Part shown: one piece after another, positions 5,920-47,600 of the stretch
How positions within the stretch are numbered: the stretch's first letter is position 1
Layout: each line of letters starts with the position of its first letter
Assembly: GCA_038230295.1 (NCBI GenBank)
Contig: JBBRNM010000003.1
Span: 3,168-67,167, forward strand
DNA from: Candidatus Limnocylindrales bacterium
Lineage (GTDB): Bacteria; Chloroflexota; Limnocylindria; Limnocylindrales; CSP1-4
Length of the DNA stretch: 64,000 nt
Direction of reading: 5' to 3'
Notes under the pieces: model-generated
Told to the model about the DNA's origin: nothing
Seen by the model: the letters and a program-made list of their open reading frames with translations, nothing else
The model's database searches: none
Program-made: the position numbers and the translations under genes

Positions 5920-6168
5920 CTATTGAACCGCCTCCAGGGTCGTTTTGATCATGCCGCGGGCATGGTCCATAGCGGTTCAGTCGCCTCGGTGATCGAAACC
6001 TACAACGCAGGGGTTTCGCAGGTCGTACTGATCACCCGAGGTGATACGGACCGGGCTGAGGTGGGTTTGCCGTGGCTACGCCGGCGGCCAGACACGGGCC
6101 TCTTGATCCGTCATCGTGGCCGCGAAGTCGTCCCGAGACGGATGGATGAAATAGATCCACTCGGCCAC
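5920..6168 (-). pseudogene. Decayed YciI-like family gene (intact 30-codon N-terminus, then two in-frame stops)
   Basis: GTG at 6168, 3 nt after the hisS stop, gives VAEWIYFIHPSRDDFAATMTDQEARVWPPA* (TAG). The same frame continues ...VVGFDHRGD* (TGA) TAMDHARGMIKTTLEAVQ* (TAG at 5920-5922). The N-terminus matches the L/IxPxRxxFxxxMTxxE pattern I recall for small YciI-like proteins. The region is visibly lower in GC. Confidence 0.4.
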
Positions 6169-8573: not shown

Positions 8574-10976
8574 TCAGCCGAGGTCGCGAGTGACGCTGAA
8601 CACGTCCTTGAGCTGCTCGATGCGGGCGAGGACGCGAGCCAGCTGGCTGACCGAGGCGACCTGGAGCGTGGCGCGGACGAGCGCGGCGTGATCCGGCCCC
8701 ACCGAGACGTCCGCGGCCAGGATGTTGACCTTGGCCTCCGCGACGACCTGGGTGATGTCGCTGAGGAGGCCCGTCCGGTCGTAGGCCTCGACGCGGATCG
8801 CGATCGGGTATGTCTGGGCCGGCGCCGCTTCCCACTCGACCTCGATCAGGCGAGTGACCTCGCGCTCGTTGAGCACGGTCGGGCAGGATCGGAGGTGGAC
8901 CGTCACGCCCTTGCCCCGAGTGATGAAGCCGACGATCGGGTCGCCGGGGATCGGGTGGCAGCAGCGGGCGAACCGAACCAGCAGGTCCCCCACGCCCTTG
9001 ACCCGGACGCCGCCGGCTCGGGCGGGCTGGACGGGCGGCGCGACCGTGGGCAGCGCGAGCTGCGCGTCGTCGACGACGCCGAGCCGCATGACGACCGATT
9101 GGGCGCTGATCGCCCCGTAGCCGATCGCGGCGAGGAAGTCGTCGAGGCTGTCGTGGTTGTACTGGCGGGCGACCTCGACGAGCTTGTCCTGGCCAACGGC
9201 AGCGCTCGAGGTCCGGGCGAGGCGGCGGAGCTCGCGGTCGAGGGCCTCACGGCCGTGAACGATGTTCTCGTCGCGCTCCTGACGCTTGAACCATTGCCGG
9301 ATCTTCTCGCGGGCGTGCTGGGTTCGGACGACGTTCAGCCAGTCGCGCGACGGCCCGTGCCCGACCTTCGTCGTCACGACCTCGACGATGTCGCCGTTCT
9401 TGAGCCGGTAGTCGAGCGGGACGAGGCGGTTGTTGACCTTCGCTCCGATCGTCCGGTGGCCGACGTCGGTGTGGATCCGGTATGCGAAGTCGAGCGGGGT
9501 CGCGTTCGCCGGCAGGTCCTTGATGTCGCCCTTCGGCGTGAACACGAAGACCTGGTCCTGGAAGATGTCGAGCTTGATGCCCTCGACGAATTCGGTCGCG
9601 TCGCTGACGTCTCGCTGCCAGTCCATCAGCTGACGCAGCCAGGCGAGCTTGGCGTCGTAGTCCCGATCGGACTTCGAGCCCTCCTTGTACCGCCAGTGGG
9701 CCGCGATCCCGACCTCTGAGACCTGGTGCATCGCGTGGGTCCGGATCTGGATCTCGAGCGGCTTGCCGTCGAGCGCGATCACCGCGGTATGGAGCGACTG
9801 ATAGAGGTTGTTCTTGGGCACGGCGATGTAGTCGTCGAACTGGCCCGGGATCGGCCGCCACAGGGCATGGACGATACCCAGCGCCGCGTAGCAATCGCGG
9901 AGGTCCTCGACGAGGACCCGGATCGCGTAGACGTCGTAGATCTCGCCGAACTCGGCGCTCTTGCGCTGCATCTTCTTCCAGATGCTGTAGATGTGCTTCG
10001 GCCGGCCCTCGAGGTCGGCCGTGATCCCGGCGGCCTCGAGCCGCGGTCGGAGCTCCTCGATTGCCCTGTCGATATAGGACTCGCGGCCCTTTCGGCGCGT
10101 GTCCAGGAGCTTGGCGAGCTCGCGGAAGCGGACCGGCTCGATGACCTTGAACGACAGATCCTCGAGCTCCCACTTGACCTGCCAGATCCCGAGGCGCTCG
10201 GCCAGCGGGGCGTAGATCTCGAGGGTCTGGCGGGCGATCCGGAGCTGCTTTTCCGGCGGCAGCGGGGCCAGGGTCCGCATGTTGTGGAGGCGGTCCGCGA
10301 GCTTGATGAGGACGACCCGGATGTCGTCGGCCATCGCCAGGAACATCTTCCGGATGTTCTCGGCCTGCTGCTGCTCGTGGCTCAGCGTGCTGAATTTGCT
10401 GAGCTTCGTCACCCCGTCGACGAGATGGGCGACCTCGGCACCGAAGCGATCCTCGATGTCGGGCAGGTCGTACTCCGTGTCCTCGGGGACGTCGTGCAGG
10501 ATGGCCGCCTCGATCGCGATCGGGTCGATGCCGAGGTCGGCGAGGATCTGGGCGGCGGCGATCGGATGGGTGATGTACGGCTCACCGGAAGCGCGCTTCT
10601 GGTCGCCGTGGGCCTCGATGGCGAAGTCGATAGCGCCCTGGAGGGCGGCGAGATCGGCCTGCGGATCGTGTCGTTGGAGGGTGTCGATCAGGGTCGCCCG
10701 CATCGACCCCACGCTCGGGACCTTCGGGGCCGACTTGGTCGCCGCCGGCTTGGCGACGAGGGACGGCTTCGGGGCCGGCGCCTTGGCCACCACCGCGAGC
10801 TTGGGGCCTGCGGACTTCCCATTCCCGGGTTTCGCCGCTGCTGACTTCGCGGTCGCCTTCGGTCGCGCGACCGCGCGAGGCGCGCGCTTCGGGACCGGTC
10901 CGGCCGCGGGTGGAGCTGGCGGGCGAGGCTCGGCCGGTCGCACCGCCCGCGTGCGTGGGACGACCATCGTGCGCAA
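8574..10976 (-). CDS. relA: Bifunctional (p)ppGpp synthetase/hydrolase (RelA/SpoT homologue) with a Lys/Ala/Pro-rich N-terminal extension
   Basis: HD domain (HGDQKRASGEPYITHP), synthetase domain, and TGS and ACT regions. The longest ORF starts at TTG 10976. Alternative starts are ATG 10967 (MVVPRT) and the internal MRATLIDT. Confidence 0.9.
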   Translation of the reverse strand: MRTMVVPRTRAVRPAEPRPPAPPAAGPVPKRAPRAVARPKATAKSAAAKPGNGKSAGPKLAVVAKAPAPKPSLVAKPAATKSAPKVPSVGSMRATLIDTLQRHDPQADLAALQGAIDFAIEAHGDQKRASGEPYITHPIAAAQILADLGIDPIAIEAAILHDVPEDTEYDLPDIEDRFGAEVAHLVDGVTKLSKFSTLSHEQQQAENIRKMFLAMADDIRVVLIKLADRLHNMRTLAPLPPEKQLRIARQTLEIYAPLAERLGIWQVKWELEDLSFKVIEPVRFRELAKLLDTRRKGRESYIDRAIEELRPRLEAAGITADLEGRPKHIYSIWKKMQRKSAEFGEIYDVYAIRVLVEDLRDCYAALGIVHALWRPIPGQFDDYIAVPKNNLYQSLHTAVIALDGKPLEIQIRTHAMHQVSEVGIAAHWRYKEGSKSDRDYDAKLAWLRQLMDWQRDVSDATEFVEGIKLDIFQDQVFVFTPKGDIKDLPANATPLDFAYRIHTDVGHRTIGAKVNNRLVPLDYRLKNGDIVEVVTTKVGHGPSRDWLNVVRTQHAREKIRQWFKRQERDENIVHGREALDRELRRLARTSSAAVGQDKLVEVARQYNHDSLDDFLAAIGYGAISAQSVVMRLGVVDDAQLALPTVAPPVQPARAGGVRVKGVGDLLVRFARCCHPIPGDPIVGFITRGKGVTVHLRSCPTVLNEREVTRLIEVEWEAAPAQTYPIAIRVEAYDRTGLLSDITQVVAEAKVNILAADVSVGPDHAALVRATLQVASVSQLARVLARIEQLKDVFSVTRDLG

Positions 10977-10977
10977 A

Positions 10978-10983
10978 AGTCTA
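10978..10983 (-). promoter_or_regulatory. Candidate -10 element (TAGACT) immediately upstream of relA
   Basis: The minus strand reads TAGACT-t-TTG...ATG. The ATG at 10967 lies 10 nt downstream of the hexamer, so the leader is very short or absent. Confidence 0.3.
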
Positions 10984-11307
10984 GCAGCGGCTCGAGTCGC
11001 CTCCGATCGGCGCGCGGACGGGCAGGAGCGTGGCGGCCCTCAGGAATCGACCCGCTTGGACATCGGTCGGCGTTCTCTCAAGCTCCGGTTGTGCCAAATT
11101 GCCACCACGCGGCAGCTCGTCAGCGATCCCGTGACAACCGTGCCCCAGGCGCACGTTTGGCAGCGCCATACCGGCACCGCGAGCGCTCCCGTGCTCAGCA
11201 GCTCCGACACGTCGATCGAATCCGTGACGAGTTGCCACCTCATTCACGTTTGACCACATGGGCCCGGTCCAGGTTCGAGAGATGGGTCGGCTCGAGGCGC
11301 TGGAGGC

Positions 11308-24277: not shown

Positions 24278-25456
24278 CTACCGACGCGAGGCCCCCGCCT
24301 TCGCGGCGAGCGCGGCCTGGGCGACGGCCGCATCGATCTGTCCGGCGAGCGCGCCGATCTCCTTGGCCAGTGGCGATTCCGGCTTCGAGAAGGAGAACGG
24401 CTGACCCGTGTTCTGGGCCCGGATCGCGACCGCGTAGTCGTTCGTGATCTTGGATTCGAACTTGCGCTTGAGGGCGCTCTCGGCGGCCCCGGCGGTGACG
24501 CCGGTGAACGCGTTCGAGCGGTTCAGGACGAGCTTGAGCCGGCTCGACTGGAAGCCGATGCGCTGGAGCGCCTCGAGGACGAGGCGGACGTTCTTGAGGC
24601 ACGACAGGTCGGCGGTCATGACGATGTGGAGCTCGTCGGCGTGGTCGAGGATCGATAGCGTCAGGTCGCCGAGCCGCTTGTCGACGTCGACGATGACGTA
24701 GTCGTACATGCTCCGGAGGATCGCGAGGACGCTCGTCATCCGCTCCTCGGAGACGAGGTCGCTCTCCTCCGGCGTCGCCGGCGCGAGCAGGAGGTCGATC
24801 CCCGAATCGTGCTTCACGAGCACGGACTTCAGGAGCTCGGGATCGACGTTTGGAGCGGAGACCGCGTCGATGATGCTCTTGCGGTCGTTGCCGAGGTCGA
24901 GGAAGACGCGATGGTCGCCGAACTGGAGCGCGGCGTCGACGAGGACGACCTTGCGGTCGTGGAGGGTCTGGAGCGCGATCGCGGTGTTGATGGCGATCGT
25001 CGTCGACCCCACCCCGCCCTTCGCGCCGTAGAACGCGATCATCCGCCCGAGCGGCGGCTTGCCAAGGGCCCCGCCGTCCTGTGTCCCGAACCTCGAGAGC
25101 AGGCTCTTCATCCGGGCGAGGAGCTCGGCCTGGTGGAACGGCTTCACGAGGAAGTCGTCAGCGCCGGCCCGAAGGCCACGGACCTTCTGCTCGACCTCCT
25201 TCTCGGAGGTCAACATGATGATCGGGACGTGGGCGCCGCCGCCTTCGTCGGTCCGGATCTTCTCGGCAACGGCGTAGCCGTCGAGCTTCGGCAGCCCAAC
25301 GTCGAGCAGGATCAGCGCCGGCGATTCGGCCGACCAGAGGCGAATCGCCTCCTGGCCGTCGCCCGCGACGATGACGCTGTAGCCGGCCTGTTTGAGCGTG
25401 TACTGCAGGAGTCGCTGGACGTTGGCTTCGTCGTCGACGACGAGGATCTTCGTCAT
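24278..25456 (-). CDS. Response-regulator receiver domain fused to a CpaE/TadZ-like ParA/MinD-family ATPase
   Basis: Canonical REC residues are present (VVDDE, LLDVGLP, MLTS, LVKPF). The P-loop is YGAKGGVGSTT (Ser replaces the usual Lys of KGGxGK[ST], as in the CpaE/TadZ type). The ATG overlaps the stomatin stop by 4 nt. Confidence 0.85.
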   Translation of the reverse strand: MTKILVVDDEANVQRLLQYTLKQAGYSVIVAGDGQEAIRLWSAESPALILLDVGLPKLDGYAVAEKIRTDEGGGAHVPIIMLTSEKEVEQKVRGLRAGADDFLVKPFHQAELLARMKSLLSRFGTQDGGALGKPPLGRMIAFYGAKGGVGSTTIAINTAIALQTLHDRKVVLVDAALQFGDHRVFLDLGNDRKSIIDAVSAPNVDPELLKSVLVKHDSGIDLLLAPATPEESDLVSEERMTSVLAILRSMYDYVIVDVDKRLGDLTLSILDHADELHIVMTADLSCLKNVRLVLEALQRIGFQSSRLKLVLNRSNAFTGVTAGAAESALKRKFESKITNDYAVAIRAQNTGQPFSFSKPESPLAKEIGALAGQIDAAVAQAALAAKAGASRR

Positions 25457-35658: not shown

Positions 35659-35733
35659 TGGTAGCTGGGACAGGATTCGAACCTGTGACCTAGCGATTAT
35701 GAGCCGCTTGCTCTACCACTGAGCTACCCAGCC
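35659..35733 (-). tRNA. tRNA-Met (anticodon CAT), elongator type; tRNA-Ile2 (lysidine) not excluded
   Basis: The minus strand reads GGCTGGGTAGCTCAGTGGTAGAGCAAGCGGCTCATAATCGCTAGGTCACAGGTTCGAATCCTGTCCCAGCTACCA. It folds as a cloverleaf with an encoded CCA. There is no triple G-C in the anticodon stem, so it is not an initiator. Pair 1-72 is G-U. Confidence 0.9.
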
Positions 35734-41308: not shown

Positions 41309-41665
41309 GTGTATTTCTATGAGCTTCACGAGGGCGACGAGGAGGTCTTCTCGGACCTGCTCCTCGTCAGCGAAGACCAGATGGATCCCGAGGACTTCTA
41401 CGAGCTCGTCCAGGCGGTTCGTGAGCAGGTCCAGCCGAACTACGAGGACGATACCTTGATCGAGGCGATCGCCCGCGAGCTCGAGCGCGAGCATGGCTTC
41501 ACGTTCATCTCGGATGCCCGCCTCGAGGCCTCAGTCCATGTGTCGCCGATCGAGGCCGAGAACCGGCTGATCGCCGTCGACGACGAGATCGCCGAGAGTG
41601 CCGAGTTCCGGACCCTGTTCGCGAAGCTGAACGTCGACGACGACGTCACCGACGAGCTGAACTAG
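41309..41665 (+). CDS. Hypothetical acidic small protein
   Basis: 118 aa. The GTG is preceded by GGAG with a 6-nt spacer. The protein is strongly acidic with lower-GC codons, and no family was recognised. Confidence 0.6.
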   Translation: MYFYELHEGDEEVFSDLLLVSEDQMDPEDFYELVQAVREQVQPNYEDDTLIEAIARELEREHGFTFISDARLEASVHVSPIEAENRLIAVDDEIAESAEFRTLFAKLNVDDDVTDELN

Positions 41666-41741
41666 CTGATCGCCCGCGGCCCCCCCGCGCGCGGCCGCCG
41701 GGGACGGCAGGGTCGAGCGCGGGCCTCACGCTTACGGCGCT

Positions 41742-41942
41742 TTGTGCAACGGGAGCACCGAAACGACGTGGATCGGTCGAAATGTGCAGACGCAGCACAA
41801 CGGCGACGTGATTGGGGCCCATTCGGCGCCGTTTACCCCGCCACAGATCTTCGAGCGTCGTTCCTGTGCAACCACGGCACGAGTCGACACCTTCTACGGC
41901 TCTAAGCAGCTCAGGCAGTCGAGTTGGTGCAGTGGGGGCACA
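41742..41942. repeat. Array of four TGTGC-N7-GCACA palindromes forming two composite hairpin elements plus a central hairpin (candidate sRNA, REPIN-like element or operator array)
   Basis: The units lie at 41743-59, 41783-99, 41865-81 and 41926-42. See the first finding for the pairing scheme. Confidence 0.6.
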
Positions 41943-41987
41943 AAGGGCTGGGGGCGATCAGCCTGGTAGTGCGGGCGAGGCGCCCGT

Positions 41988-43091
41988 CTACGGGCTGAAA
42001 AGAATCTCCAGCACGTCGCCGTCCTTGACCCGGTAGGTCTTGCCCTCGGAACGCAGGCGCCCGGCCTTGCGGGCCTCGGCCATCGACCCGAGCGTCAGCA
42101 GATCCTCGTAGGCGACCGTCTCGGCGCGGATGAAGCCGCGTGCGAGGTCCGTGTGAATCGCGGCCGCGGCATCGACCGCCGTCGAGCCGTCCGGGATCGG
42201 CCACGCCCGAACCTCGTCGGGGCCCGCGGTCAGGAACGAGATGAGCCCCAGCAGCTGATAGGACAGCGCGATCACGCGGTCGAGGCCCGAGTCGGCAATC
42301 CCGAGCTCGCTCATGAATCCCGCCGCTTCCTCCGGCTCGAGCTCGCCGAGCTCCATCTCGATCTTCGCCGAGAGCGCGGCCACGAGGGTCTGCCGATGGG
42401 GATGTGCGGCTTCGACGCTGGCCACGAGATCGCCCGCACCCGCGAGGGCATCCTCGCCCACGTTCAGCAGCACCAGGACGGGTTTCTCGGTCAGGAAGCG
42501 GAAGCCTCGGATCGCCTTGGCGTCCTCGTCGTCGAGGCCGAGGTCGCGGATCGGCCGGCCCGCGCTTAACGCCGCCTTGAGGTCGACGAGGATCGTCGCC
42601 TCGCGCTCGTTCGCGTCCCGCTCGGCCTGGGTGCCGTGGCGACCGCTGCCGGTGAGCCGCTCGAGGCGGCGATCGACCATCGCCAGGTCGGCGAGGATGA
42701 ACTCGAGATCGAGGCGCTCCACGTCACGGGCCGGATCAACCGAGCCCTCCGGGTGCGGCACGGACGCATTCTCGAACGCGCGGACCACGTGCAGCAGCGC
42801 ATCCGAGTCGCGCAGCCGAGCGAGGTGCTCGGCCGGCAGCTCCTCGGTTCCGACGTGCCCTTCGGTCGAGGTCGGCGGCGCGGGCAGATCGACGTAGGTG
42901 ACGTCCGCCTGGACGACCTTCTTCGGCTTGAAGATCTCAGCAAGGCGGTCGAGCCGGCCGTCCGGTACCTTCACGACGCCGACATTCAGGGTCAGACCGC
43001 CGAAGCCGCCGGTCTCGGCGTGCCCCCGGGTCAGCGTGTTGAAGACGGTGGTCTTGCCGCTCGCGGTGAGCCCGACGATCGCGATCTGCAC
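41988..43091 (-). CDS. ychF: Ribosome-binding ATPase YchF
   Basis: MQIAIVGLTASGKTTVFNTLT, with a TGS-like C-terminus (RSEGKTYRVKDGDVLEILF). Confidence 0.95.
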   Translation of the reverse strand: MQIAIVGLTASGKTTVFNTLTRGHAETGGFGGLTLNVGVVKVPDGRLDRLAEIFKPKKVVQADVTYVDLPAPPTSTEGHVGTEELPAEHLARLRDSDALLHVVRAFENASVPHPEGSVDPARDVERLDLEFILADLAMVDRRLERLTGSGRHGTQAERDANEREATILVDLKAALSAGRPIRDLGLDDEDAKAIRGFRFLTEKPVLVLLNVGEDALAGAGDLVASVEAAHPHRQTLVAALSAKIEMELGELEPEEAAGFMSELGIADSGLDRVIALSYQLLGLISFLTAGPDEVRAWPIPDGSTAVDAAAAIHTDLARGFIRAETVAYEDLLTLGSMAEARKAGRLRSEGKTYRVKDGDVLEILFSP

Positions 43092-46436: not shown

Positions 46437-47600
46437 CTACCGGGCAGCCGCGGCCGCGACTCGCCTGCCGGCCTGCGACCCGAGGGCGATGAGGTCCTCG
46501 GCCACCGTGAGCAGGTCGCGGCTGACGCCCGCGCTCGGGTCGACGGTCACGAAGGCCAGGCCCTGGTTGCTTGCCGGCCCGACGACCTGGCCCTCGGAGC
46601 GAAGGCGATGCTCCGGCTCGCGACCGAGCGCCTTGTAGAGATCCGCTGGGTCGATGCCGGCGGTCGCGTCGCTGCGATTCAGGAGATAGTGGACCTTGTC
46701 GGTCGAGTAGCCGATCTTGCGGAACGTGTCGGCCATCGCGGCCACGTTGCGGATCGTCGTGCCGTCGTAGGTCACGATCTCGAGGATCGTGTCCGCCTGG
46801 TCGAGGATCGCGAGCGTGAGCTCGTCGAGGGCGACGCCGGTGTCGACGATCACGAGGTCGTAGAGGCGCCGCAGGAGCGAGAGGGTCTTCTCGAGATCGT
46901 GGGCGAGGACCATCTCGGCCATCTCGACGCGCGGCGGCGCGAGGAGGATGTCGATACCGGACGCGTCCCGCCACAGGACGTCGGTGAGGTCCGACTCGAC
47001 GACCTTGTCCGTTGGCAGGTCGAGCATCGACGGCGCGCTGTCGGGGACCTGCAGGATGGAGCGCACGTCGGCGAACTGGATGCTTCCGTCGACGAGCGCC
47101 GTTCGCACGCCGAGCCCGGACGCCGCGACCGCGAGGTTGAGGGCGATCGTTGTCTTGCCGACCCCGCCCTTCGGCGCGAACACCGCGACGATCCGACTGG
47201 GTCCGCGCTCGGCCGCCGCAACCGCGACCTTGTTGACGCTGATGACCCGGCTGATCAGGTCGTAGCCGTTGAACGGCATCGCCAAAACATCGTGGATCCC
47301 GTTGTCCGGGTCCGGGTCGAGCGGGTGCTGCGGGACCGTCAGGACGATGACCGGGACGGGGACTGCGGCCTCGTGGAGCTGCTTGACCACGGCCATGCCG
47401 CGCAGGCGTCCCTGGAGCAGCCCATCCACCACCACGACGTCCGGCCGCTGCTCGGTGACCTGGCCCATGACCAGCGCGCCATCGGCGATCACATCGATGA
47501 GCTTGACCTGCGTCTGGGCGTTCAGGAGCCCTCGGACGTACTGCGCGACCTGGGGCACGTCCTCGACGAGGAGGAGCCTGACCTGACCGCTCGGTGCCAT
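46437..47600 (-). CDS. Pseudo-receiver domain fused to a ParA/MinD-family ATPase (paralogue of 24278..25456)
   Basis: The REC-like N-domain has E-D, D (VVVDGLL) and T (VLTV), but the conserved Lys is replaced (LAMPF). The P-loop is the canonical deviant Walker A, PKGGVGKTT. Confidence 0.85.
   Translation of the reverse strand: MAPSGQVRLLLVEDVPQVAQYVRGLLNAQTQVKLIDVIADGALVMGQVTEQRPDVVVVDGLLQGRLRGMAVVKQLHEAAVPVPVIVLTVPQHPLDPDPDNGIHDVLAMPFNGYDLISRVISVNKVAVAAAERGPSRIVAVFAPKGGVGKTTIALNLAVAASGLGVRTALVDGSIQFADVRSILQVPDSAPSMLDLPTDKVVESDLTDVLWRDASGIDILLAPPRVEMAEMVLAHDLEKTLSLLRRLYDLVIVDTGVALDELTLAILDQADTILEIVTYDGTTIRNVAAMADTFRKIGYSTDKVHYLLNRSDATAGIDPADLYKALGREPEHRLRSEGQVVGPASNQGLAFVTVDPSAGVSRDLLTVAEDLIALGSQAGRRVAAAAAR

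Follow-up and report, generated by a model that had tools for sequence, protein, structure and literature searches.

A lineage-specific insertion of palindromic, non-coding DNA in the terminator gap between ychF and its convergent neighbor in a Limnocylindrales genome

What does a dense cluster of short palindromes mean when it lies between the 3′ ends of two converging genes? The question arose from a stretch of 64,000 nucleotides (nt) of a Candidatus Limnocylindrales bacterium (NCBI assembly GCA_038230295.1, contig JBBRNM010000003.1, positions 3,168 to 67,167 of the forward strand), the whole of which is called the window below. Limnocylindria-like Chloroflexota are poorly studied, mostly uncultured bacteria of soil and freshwater. 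In the window, the gap between ychF and a convergent open reading frame (ORF) for an acidic protein of 118 amino acids (aa) holds four copies of the palindrome GTGC-N7-GCAC, here termed units 1 to 4, which pair into two layered hairpins, H1 and H2. The original prediction, made from the letters of the sequence alone, left three readings side by side: a structured small RNA (sRNA), a repetitive extragenic palindrome (REP) or REP doublet (REPIN), and an operator- or centromere-like array for a dimeric DNA-binding protein. Our comparison with relatives identified the segment as a lineage-specific insertion. Tentatively, we regard it as an orphan, small, non-autonomous palindromic insertion, resembling either a miniature inverted-repeat transposable element (MITE) or a REPIN or bacterial interspersed mosaic element (BIME), within a terminator gap of fast turnover.

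Re-reading of the sequence returned the four units at the coordinates and with the letters given before (Table 1). When the window was scanned for exact GTGC-N7-GCAC, six matches were found against 1.42 expected from shuffles. Four of these lie in the gap (41744, 41784, 41866, and 41927); the remaining matches, at 11140 and 24809, are the same two that had been listed as the only ones elsewhere (11139-55 and 24808-24). A first-order Markov model fitted to the gap sequence gives a probability of 1.7e-4 for at least two units, and at least three units were reached in none of 300,000 simulations with a Markov model of the gap composition. The cluster is thus beyond chance, as had been stated for four units in 200 bp. 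Once aligned, the units read T-GTGC-A-R-N4-R-GCAC, all four in the same orientation and with a symmetry confined to a core of 4-5 bp. Their centre-to-centre spacings of 40, 82, and 61 bp were likewise confirmed and correspond to 3.81, 7.81, and 5.81 turns at 10.5 bp per turn. Since this offset accumulates from unit to unit, the claim that all sites share one helical face is unsupported; units 1 and 4, 183 bp or 17.4 turns apart, lie on opposite faces.

The origin of the cluster became apparent from the closest relative (NCBI GCA_038234575.1, locus L001), whose YchF is 96% identical and whose DNA is collinear with the window over 21 kb at 89% nucleotide identity (blastn). Homology between the two ends at 41665, the last base of the stop codon of the 118-aa ORF, and restarts at 41978. 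The net gain of approximately 283 bp is the sole large indel in this 21-kb alignment. The gap between ychF and the acidic ORF measures 39 bp in L001 and 107, 36, 32, 27, -4, and -4 bp in six further relatives, and the YchF proteins of all seven are 85-96% identical to that of the window. None of the seven orthologous gaps contains a GTGC-N7-GCAC unit. Given the break of homology and these short, unit-free gaps, the window carries a lineage-specific insertion of roughly 283-312 bp, which among the genomes compared occurs in one. The gap sequences of the relatives are mutually unrelated, yet each of them forms a hairpin. The gap of relative L002 (11105-11211; the same in L003), for example, is an unrelated, long imperfect hairpin of 107 bp (-54 kcal/mol), which is single-copy in the 21 kb of that relative. 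As each relative holds a different hairpin-forming sequence, the convergent terminator gap turns over quickly, and the site seems to be a hotspot for gaining hairpin-forming DNA.

Two inverted repeats structure the insertion. The outer one, located at its ends, spans 18 nt, of which 16 (89%) are complementary and 11 perfect. A terminal repeat of at least 16/18 did not appear in any of 5000 simulations with local composition, and the 11 perfect positions have a probability of 4e-4. The inner repeat (10/11 complementary, with a perfect run of 8 bp) brackets a core of lower GC content, approximately 0.61 at 41775-41924 compared with approximately 0.70 in the flanks, in line with the low GC noted earlier for the gap. 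The GC content at third codon positions is 0.49-0.77 across all six frames of the insertion and 0.89 in both flanking genes. A search of 5.8 billion protein clusters with its longest ORF, 75 aa spanning the core, which stood in for ORFs that might have been called by mistake in further copies of the element, returned no homologue. The segment is non-coding, in line with the implausible composition noted earlier for the ORFs in the gap.

Both composite hairpins of the original prediction were reproduced as minimum free energy (MFE) or centroid folds on both strands (z-scores from -1.4 to -3.3), and the middle hairpin as well as the alternative pairing of CTTTGTGC with GCACAAAG are present. Folded alone, H1 reaches -19.8 and -22.1 kcal/mol on the two strands and H2 -35.7 and -34.7 kcal/mol, with z-scores of about -3.0 to -3.3 for the latter. 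The unit stems consist of Watson-Crick pairs throughout, and folding is equally good on either strand. H2 repeats the layout of H1 directly, not in inverted orientation: units 1 and 3 have TGTGCAAC in common, units 2 and 4 share GTGCAG...GCACAA-N-GG, and in the pairs 1+2 and 3+4 alike an inner stem, CGAC...GTCG(A), sits inside at an identical offset. The module can be written as TGTGCAAC-N4-GCAC-N4/5-CGAC ... GTCGA-N3/4-GTGCAG-N5-GCACAA-N-GG. Between H1 and H2, the stem and half-site bases (TGTGCAAC, GCAC, CGAC, GTCGA, GTGCAG, GCACAA, and GG) are identical at 35/35 positions, while loop and spacer positions agree at random level only. A change from G-C to C-G between the two, previously considered compensatory, concerns a single position in two paralogues and carries no statistical weight. 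MAFFT misaligned the inner stems of H1 and H2, and two sequences have no power for covariation.

Diverged structured RNAs show compensatory changes in their stems and conserved loops, whereas protein-binding sites in DNA keep invariant half-sites and vary freely in their spacers. The complete conservation of the stem bases next to random loops suggests that the GTGC/GCAC and CGAC/GTCG blocks are recognized by sequence in the DNA, which fits better than RNA covariation; RNA stems kept up by structure alone would not produce such a pattern. The module probably has a history longer than its short residence at this site, having evolved elsewhere and arrived ready-made.

The reading as a small insertion element draws on the terminal inverted repeats, the lack of coding capacity, the lower GC content, the dense secondary structure, and the presence/absence polymorphism. 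Approximately 300 bp of non-coding DNA would have been inserted, in this lineage only, into the tiny convergent terminator gap of ychF and the 118-aa ORF. The palindromic units would be recognition sites of a dimeric DNA-binding protein, either the transposase or recombinase of the element or a host factor, and this protein could bind them as duplex DNA or as extruded hairpins. Mobility, protein recognition of the units, and a present-day role are all what we infer. Most likely, the element now does no more than lend additional hairpins to the 3′ ends of both convergent transcripts, and there is as yet no sign of a function other than this added structure at two gene ends. With MITEs, the segment shares the size of about 300 bp, terminal inverted repeats (here at the break of homology), the non-coding nature, a lower GC content than the host, fold-back potential, the intergenic location, and a polymorphic presence, as it is absent from the seven relatives.

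However, a number of results weigh against this reading. H1 and H2 are directly repeated, unlike the mirrored transposase sites at the ends of a typical DDE-type MITE. No target-site duplication is readable beside the outer or the inner inverted repeat (flanks CTA/G... and ...C/CTGG, with the slash at the border). A blastn search with the element found no further copy, neither elsewhere in the window nor in the roughly 85 kb of DNA compared from relatives, and the 11-mer of the outer repeat is not enriched in the window (10 matches, 6 expected). A strict pattern of 23 positions that both H1 and H2 match, TGTGCAAC-N4-GCAC-N20-50-GTGCAG-N5-GCACA, was found at five loci in 185,579 species genomes, all unrelated to the element, and at ten loci in a metagenome collection, again none related (eight of a Haemophilus-type AT-rich repeat and two unrelated). 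Searches with blastn returned nothing from phages in distant mode, and from plasmids only GC-rich low-complexity matches to bases 1-75 of the element. Neither the Pfam-scanned ORFs of the window nor the annotation of L001 include a transposase, an RAYT, an integrase, a phage gene, or an obvious repressor. It is thus the missing duplication, second copy, and parent transposase, together with the directly repeated internal modules, that separate the segment from MITEs. A literature search for the motif strings found nothing.

The likeness to REP, BIME, and REPIN sequences lies in clustered, short, imperfect palindromes in a convergent 3′ gap and in unit pairs that yield longer hairpins. Of the three earlier readings, REP/REPIN comes closest to the evidence: it gains from the lineage-specific non-coding insertion, the inverted repeats, and the convergent 3′ gap, but REP families are high-copy and within the 64 kb this locus is the only one, which a low-copy family would still allow. 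In a true REPIN, each arm is an inverted copy of the other over its full length, whereas a comparison of unit 1 with the reverse complement of unit 2 showed loops complementary at only 2/7 positions and arms complementary to 71%. In addition, neither a GTAG-type head nor an RAYT gene was seen in the window. The data do not place the segment in any named family. If further copies exist in the source genome, the segment would represent a new small mobile-element family in Limnocylindria-like Chloroflexota, and TGTGCAAC-N4-GCAC ... GTGCAG-N5-GCACAA would be a recognizable motif for finding its enzyme. For now, the locus is a single, unconserved insertion in one genome; it mainly shows that convergent terminator gaps of this lineage turn over by acquiring hairpin-forming DNA and that a striking cluster of palindromes need not be a conserved RNA or an operator.

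An unlikely, though credible, alternative is the capture of a control-region fragment of a phage, plasmid, or integrative and conjugative element by illegitimate recombination or break repair. The units would then be an array of 17-bp operators for a dimeric helix-turn-helix (HTH) repressor that has lost its function or, at most, still acts as a decoy for a repressor whose gene lies elsewhere. A loose viral scan found many GC-rich phage contigs (60-67%) in which a TTGAC box is accompanied by two to three TGTGC(A)-N5/7-(T)GCACA palindromes. In one of them (L089), an array of the same 17-bp geometry at 6028-6120 has a Peptidase_S24 (CI/LexA-type) repressor gene on one side and a small gene for a Cro-like HTH protein on the other. 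TGTGC-N7-GCACA is thus a geometry that operators of dimeric HTH repressors do have. With such lambdoid-type arrays, the window has the core pentamer, the odd-length dyad of 17 bp, several sites within 100-200 bp, and variable spacers in common. Invariant half-sites with free spacers suit operators, and the lower GC content and the single copy in the window suit a one-off event. The units of the window, however, are asymmetric past their core of 4-5 bp (GTGCAR...RGCAC), while the symmetry of the phage sites extends further (TGTGCA...TGCACA), and these sites overlap a promoter box (TTGAC) and lie between divergent regulator genes; sequence similarity to these arrays is absent, and no phage or plasmid record resembled the segment in blastn. 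The window offers neither promoter nor regulator at the locus, no repressor gene was found in it, and a random fragment would leave both the CGAC/GTCGA inner stems and the significant terminal inverted repeat unexplained. A phage CI/Cro-type array operating in place was rejected, as the gap is convergent, has no promoter consensus, and has no HTH or S24 gene nearby.

The phage contigs themselves display a common immunity-switch layout. In the GC-rich IMG/VR contigs L089 (6028-6120 and 4610-4661), L027, L047, L055, L063, and L095, it consists of two to three 17-bp TGTGCA-N5-TGCACA operators with a TTGAC box, and the genes on either side encode a Peptidase_S24 repressor and a Cro-like HTH protein.

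Rather improbable, in our view, is a structured non-coding RNA of about 200-300 nt, be it an independent sRNA or an extension of the 3′ untranslated region of the 118-aa gene or of ychF, in which the outer stem would close a fold with H1, the middle hairpin, and H2 as arms. The folding data would suit it to some extent. The whole gap folds better than its shuffles (z -3.15 and -3.08 on the two strands), H2 stands out with the z-scores given above, and the MFE structure closes the outer stem by pairing 41666-41682 with 41945-41962. This stem includes one G-T position, which would be a G-U pair on the + strand only and is the sole hint of a strand. Yet Rfam 15 has nothing in the gap, either at gathering score over the whole window or at E<=10 over 41600-42050, and a consensus scan found neither a sigma-70-type promoter nor a terminator in the gap, the only terminator-like site being inside ychF. 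The sequence is missing in all seven relatives, with no conservation or covariation; the left 71 nt show no more structure than their shuffled versions; and invariant stems, random loops, and strands that fold equally well are what DNA palindromes would show. Two checks that had been proposed for the RNA, a search for a described family and an alignment of the orthologous ychF-downstream gaps, thus came back empty, and the sRNA reading is weakened.

A neutral local expansion of a palindrome-prone terminator gap by slippage, template switching, or duplication, with neither function nor mobility, appears doubtful as well. Each lineage has its own hairpin-forming gap sequence (-4, 27, 32, 36, 39, or 107 bp), the gene end is repeated nearly in tandem over 9 bp just before the left outer arm (AGCTGAACT directly followed by AGCTGATCG), and H1 and H2 resemble a tandem duplication. 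Drift, though, should scatter differences evenly, which is not what the invariant stems and random loops show; the GC content of the core is distinctly below that of host intergenic DNA, and no other large indel accompanies the net gain in the alignment with L001. Bidirectional intrinsic terminators occupy the same location, and the relatives carry only such short hairpins in their gaps. The segment of the window differs from them by being ten times longer than most of the relatives' gaps, by its repeated, sequence-specific palindromes, and by the lack of U-tracts.

We consider it quite improbable that the units form a functional chromosomal array, operator- or centromere-like, for a dimeric DNA-binding protein of the host. 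Four 17-bp palindromes with half-sites spaced by one turn would suit such a role, but the convergent gap offers no promoter to regulate, the array is missing in relatives that have all neighboring genes, and its spacings are out of phase at 10.5 bp per turn. From the operator array of the original prediction, the 17-bp geometry stands, as it is real in GC-rich temperate phages, while the same-face phasing does not, and no regulator or promoter is nearby. A weak look-alike pair at 11090 and 11139, upstream of a RelA/SpoT gene, could be counted in favor of the array but is within chance expectation.

The latter region (10977-11307, intergenic, upstream of the RelA/SpoT-type gene at 8574-10976 on the - strand) holds three weak palindromes that resemble TGTGC units (11091, 11140, and 11163), and a nested hairpin like H1 with a CACG/CGTG inner stem could form from two of them. 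As a related site, this cluster was dismissed as chance, since the window contains 42 units with one mismatch, for which about 0.6 clusters of three are expected (Poisson).

Finally, an undescribed class of palindromic element, in which H1 and H2 would serve a hairpin-binding recombinase or HUH-type enzyme (as an analogue of attC sites or IS200/IS605 ends, though with a new sequence logic) or would be a programmable two-loop guide RNA orphaned of its enzyme, is very improbable. With attC sites and clusters of attC sites lacking integron integrases (CALIN), the modules share hairpins of the same orientation, two stem layers with an unpaired spacer, a variable apex, and a layout that is kept more than the sequence; the window differs by having neither cassettes nor an integrase. 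An integron attC site was discarded by eye because, although GTGCAAC fits R″ (RYYYAAC) at 6/7 positions, neither H1 nor H2 has a GTTRRRY (R′) box to pair with it at its 3′ end. The bridge RNA of IS110 and the seekRNA of IS1111 likewise have a pair of similarly built stem-loops, both with a symmetric internal loop. For an IS110 bridge RNA, however, an adjoining DEDD recombinase is missing, the flanks are conserved housekeeping genes, and the 7-mers of the loops match no insertion boundary.

Table 1. Features in and next to the inserted segment, in window positions.
Feature	Sequence or description	Positions	Strand	Basis
Inserted or replaced segment, window-specific	312 bp in the window; the closest relative has 29 bp	41666-41977		blastn against L001
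Outer terminal inverted repeat, left arm	GCTGATCGCCCGCGGCCC; its first base is the G of the TAG codon that ends the 118-aa ORF	41665-41682	+	
Outer terminal inverted repeat, right arm	GGGCTGGGGGCGATCAGC	41945-41962	-	inverted-repeat search
Left part of the insertion	very GC-rich; hairpins no more stable than shuffles (z -0.17 and +0.68)	41666-41736		
Inner inverted repeat, left arm	GCGCTTTGTGC	41737-41747	+	read from sequence
Inner inverted repeat, right arm	GCACAAAGGGC	41938-41948	-	read from sequence
Unit 1	TGTGC AACGGGA GCACC	41743-41759		read from sequence and motif scan
Unit 2	TGTGC AGACGCA GCACA	41783-41799		read from sequence and motif scan
Unit 3	TGTGC AACCACG GCACG	41865-41881		read from sequence and motif scan
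Unit 4	GGTGC AGTGGGG GCACA	41926-41942		read from sequence and motif scan
Module H1	TTGTGC:GCACAA, 7x7 loop, GCAC:GTGC, CGAC:GTCG, 8-nt apical loop	41742-41800		MFE fold, both strands
Middle hairpin	AACGGCG...CGCCGTT, between H1 and H2, nearly concentric with the outer inverted repeat	41799-41833		
Module H2	TGTGC:GCACA, CCAC:GTGG, GCAC:GTGC, TCGAC:GTCGA, 29-nt apical region	41865-41942		folding of the module
Short hairpin just past the ychF stop, outside the insertion	CGGGCG-CCU-CGCCCG; partly shared with L001	41972-41986	-	

The short hairpin next to the stop codon of ychF (last line of Table 1) is likely the native terminator stem of this gene. That the flanking genes are real and convergent, as had been proposed, was confirmed: the right-hand one encodes YchF (Pfam YchF-GTPase_C, 1.2e-31), and the acidic ORF on the left (41309-41665, +), which has no Pfam domain, takes the same place in the seven relatives. 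In all relatives examined, a conserved ORF for a very acidic protein of 115-118 aa is convergent with ychF (e.g., L001 11144-11500, L005 1207-1563, and L098 2191-2547), and in two of them the stop codons of both genes overlap in a common CTAG. Named homologues of the YchF protein come from metagenome-assembled genomes (MAGs) labeled ‘Chloroflexota bacterium’ and ‘Candidatus Limnocylindrales’, which assigns the organism to Chloroflexota. The intergenic region on the other side of ychF is expanded in one genome (L100, GCA_004297395.1), where 870 bp without a called gene (9132-10000) separate it from a 2-hydroxyacid dehydrogenase gene; in other relatives, unlike L100, these two genes are almost adjacent.

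The five genome loci with the strict pattern comprise an operator-like pair in Natronococcus, an AT-rich tandem repeat in Haemophilus, a repeat in Bacteroidetes, and a chance match in a Cys-rich ORF. In the Natronococcus MAG (L006, 7030-7095), two palindromes, both nearly perfect (ATGTGCAACTTTTGCACAT and TTGTGCAGCGTTTGCACAT) and separated by 44 bp, stand right beside a gene start and look like an archaeal operator pair. The AT-rich tandem repeat of about 36 nt (...CAGTGGTTAATTTTTGTTCACTGTGCAACCCTAGCA...) accounts for most strict-pattern matches and was met at two Haemophilus MAG loci and on eight metagenome contigs (L007, L010-L012, L014-L017, L019, and L020).

Around the locus, the window is made up of housekeeping genes, among others those for AspRS, HisRS, RelA/SpoT, a Mur ligase, FemAB, MurJ, topoisomerase I, a ComM-like chelatase, FtsH, and helicases, and its GC-skew profile has no origin- or terminus-like switch at the locus. 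The only Rfam match in the window is a tRNA gene at 35662-35733 (-). One ORF (24278-25456, -) combines a response-regulator receiver domain with a ParA/AAA_31-type ATPase, and a second one at 46437-47600 (-) matches the size and syntenic position of a gene with receiver/ParA architecture in L001.

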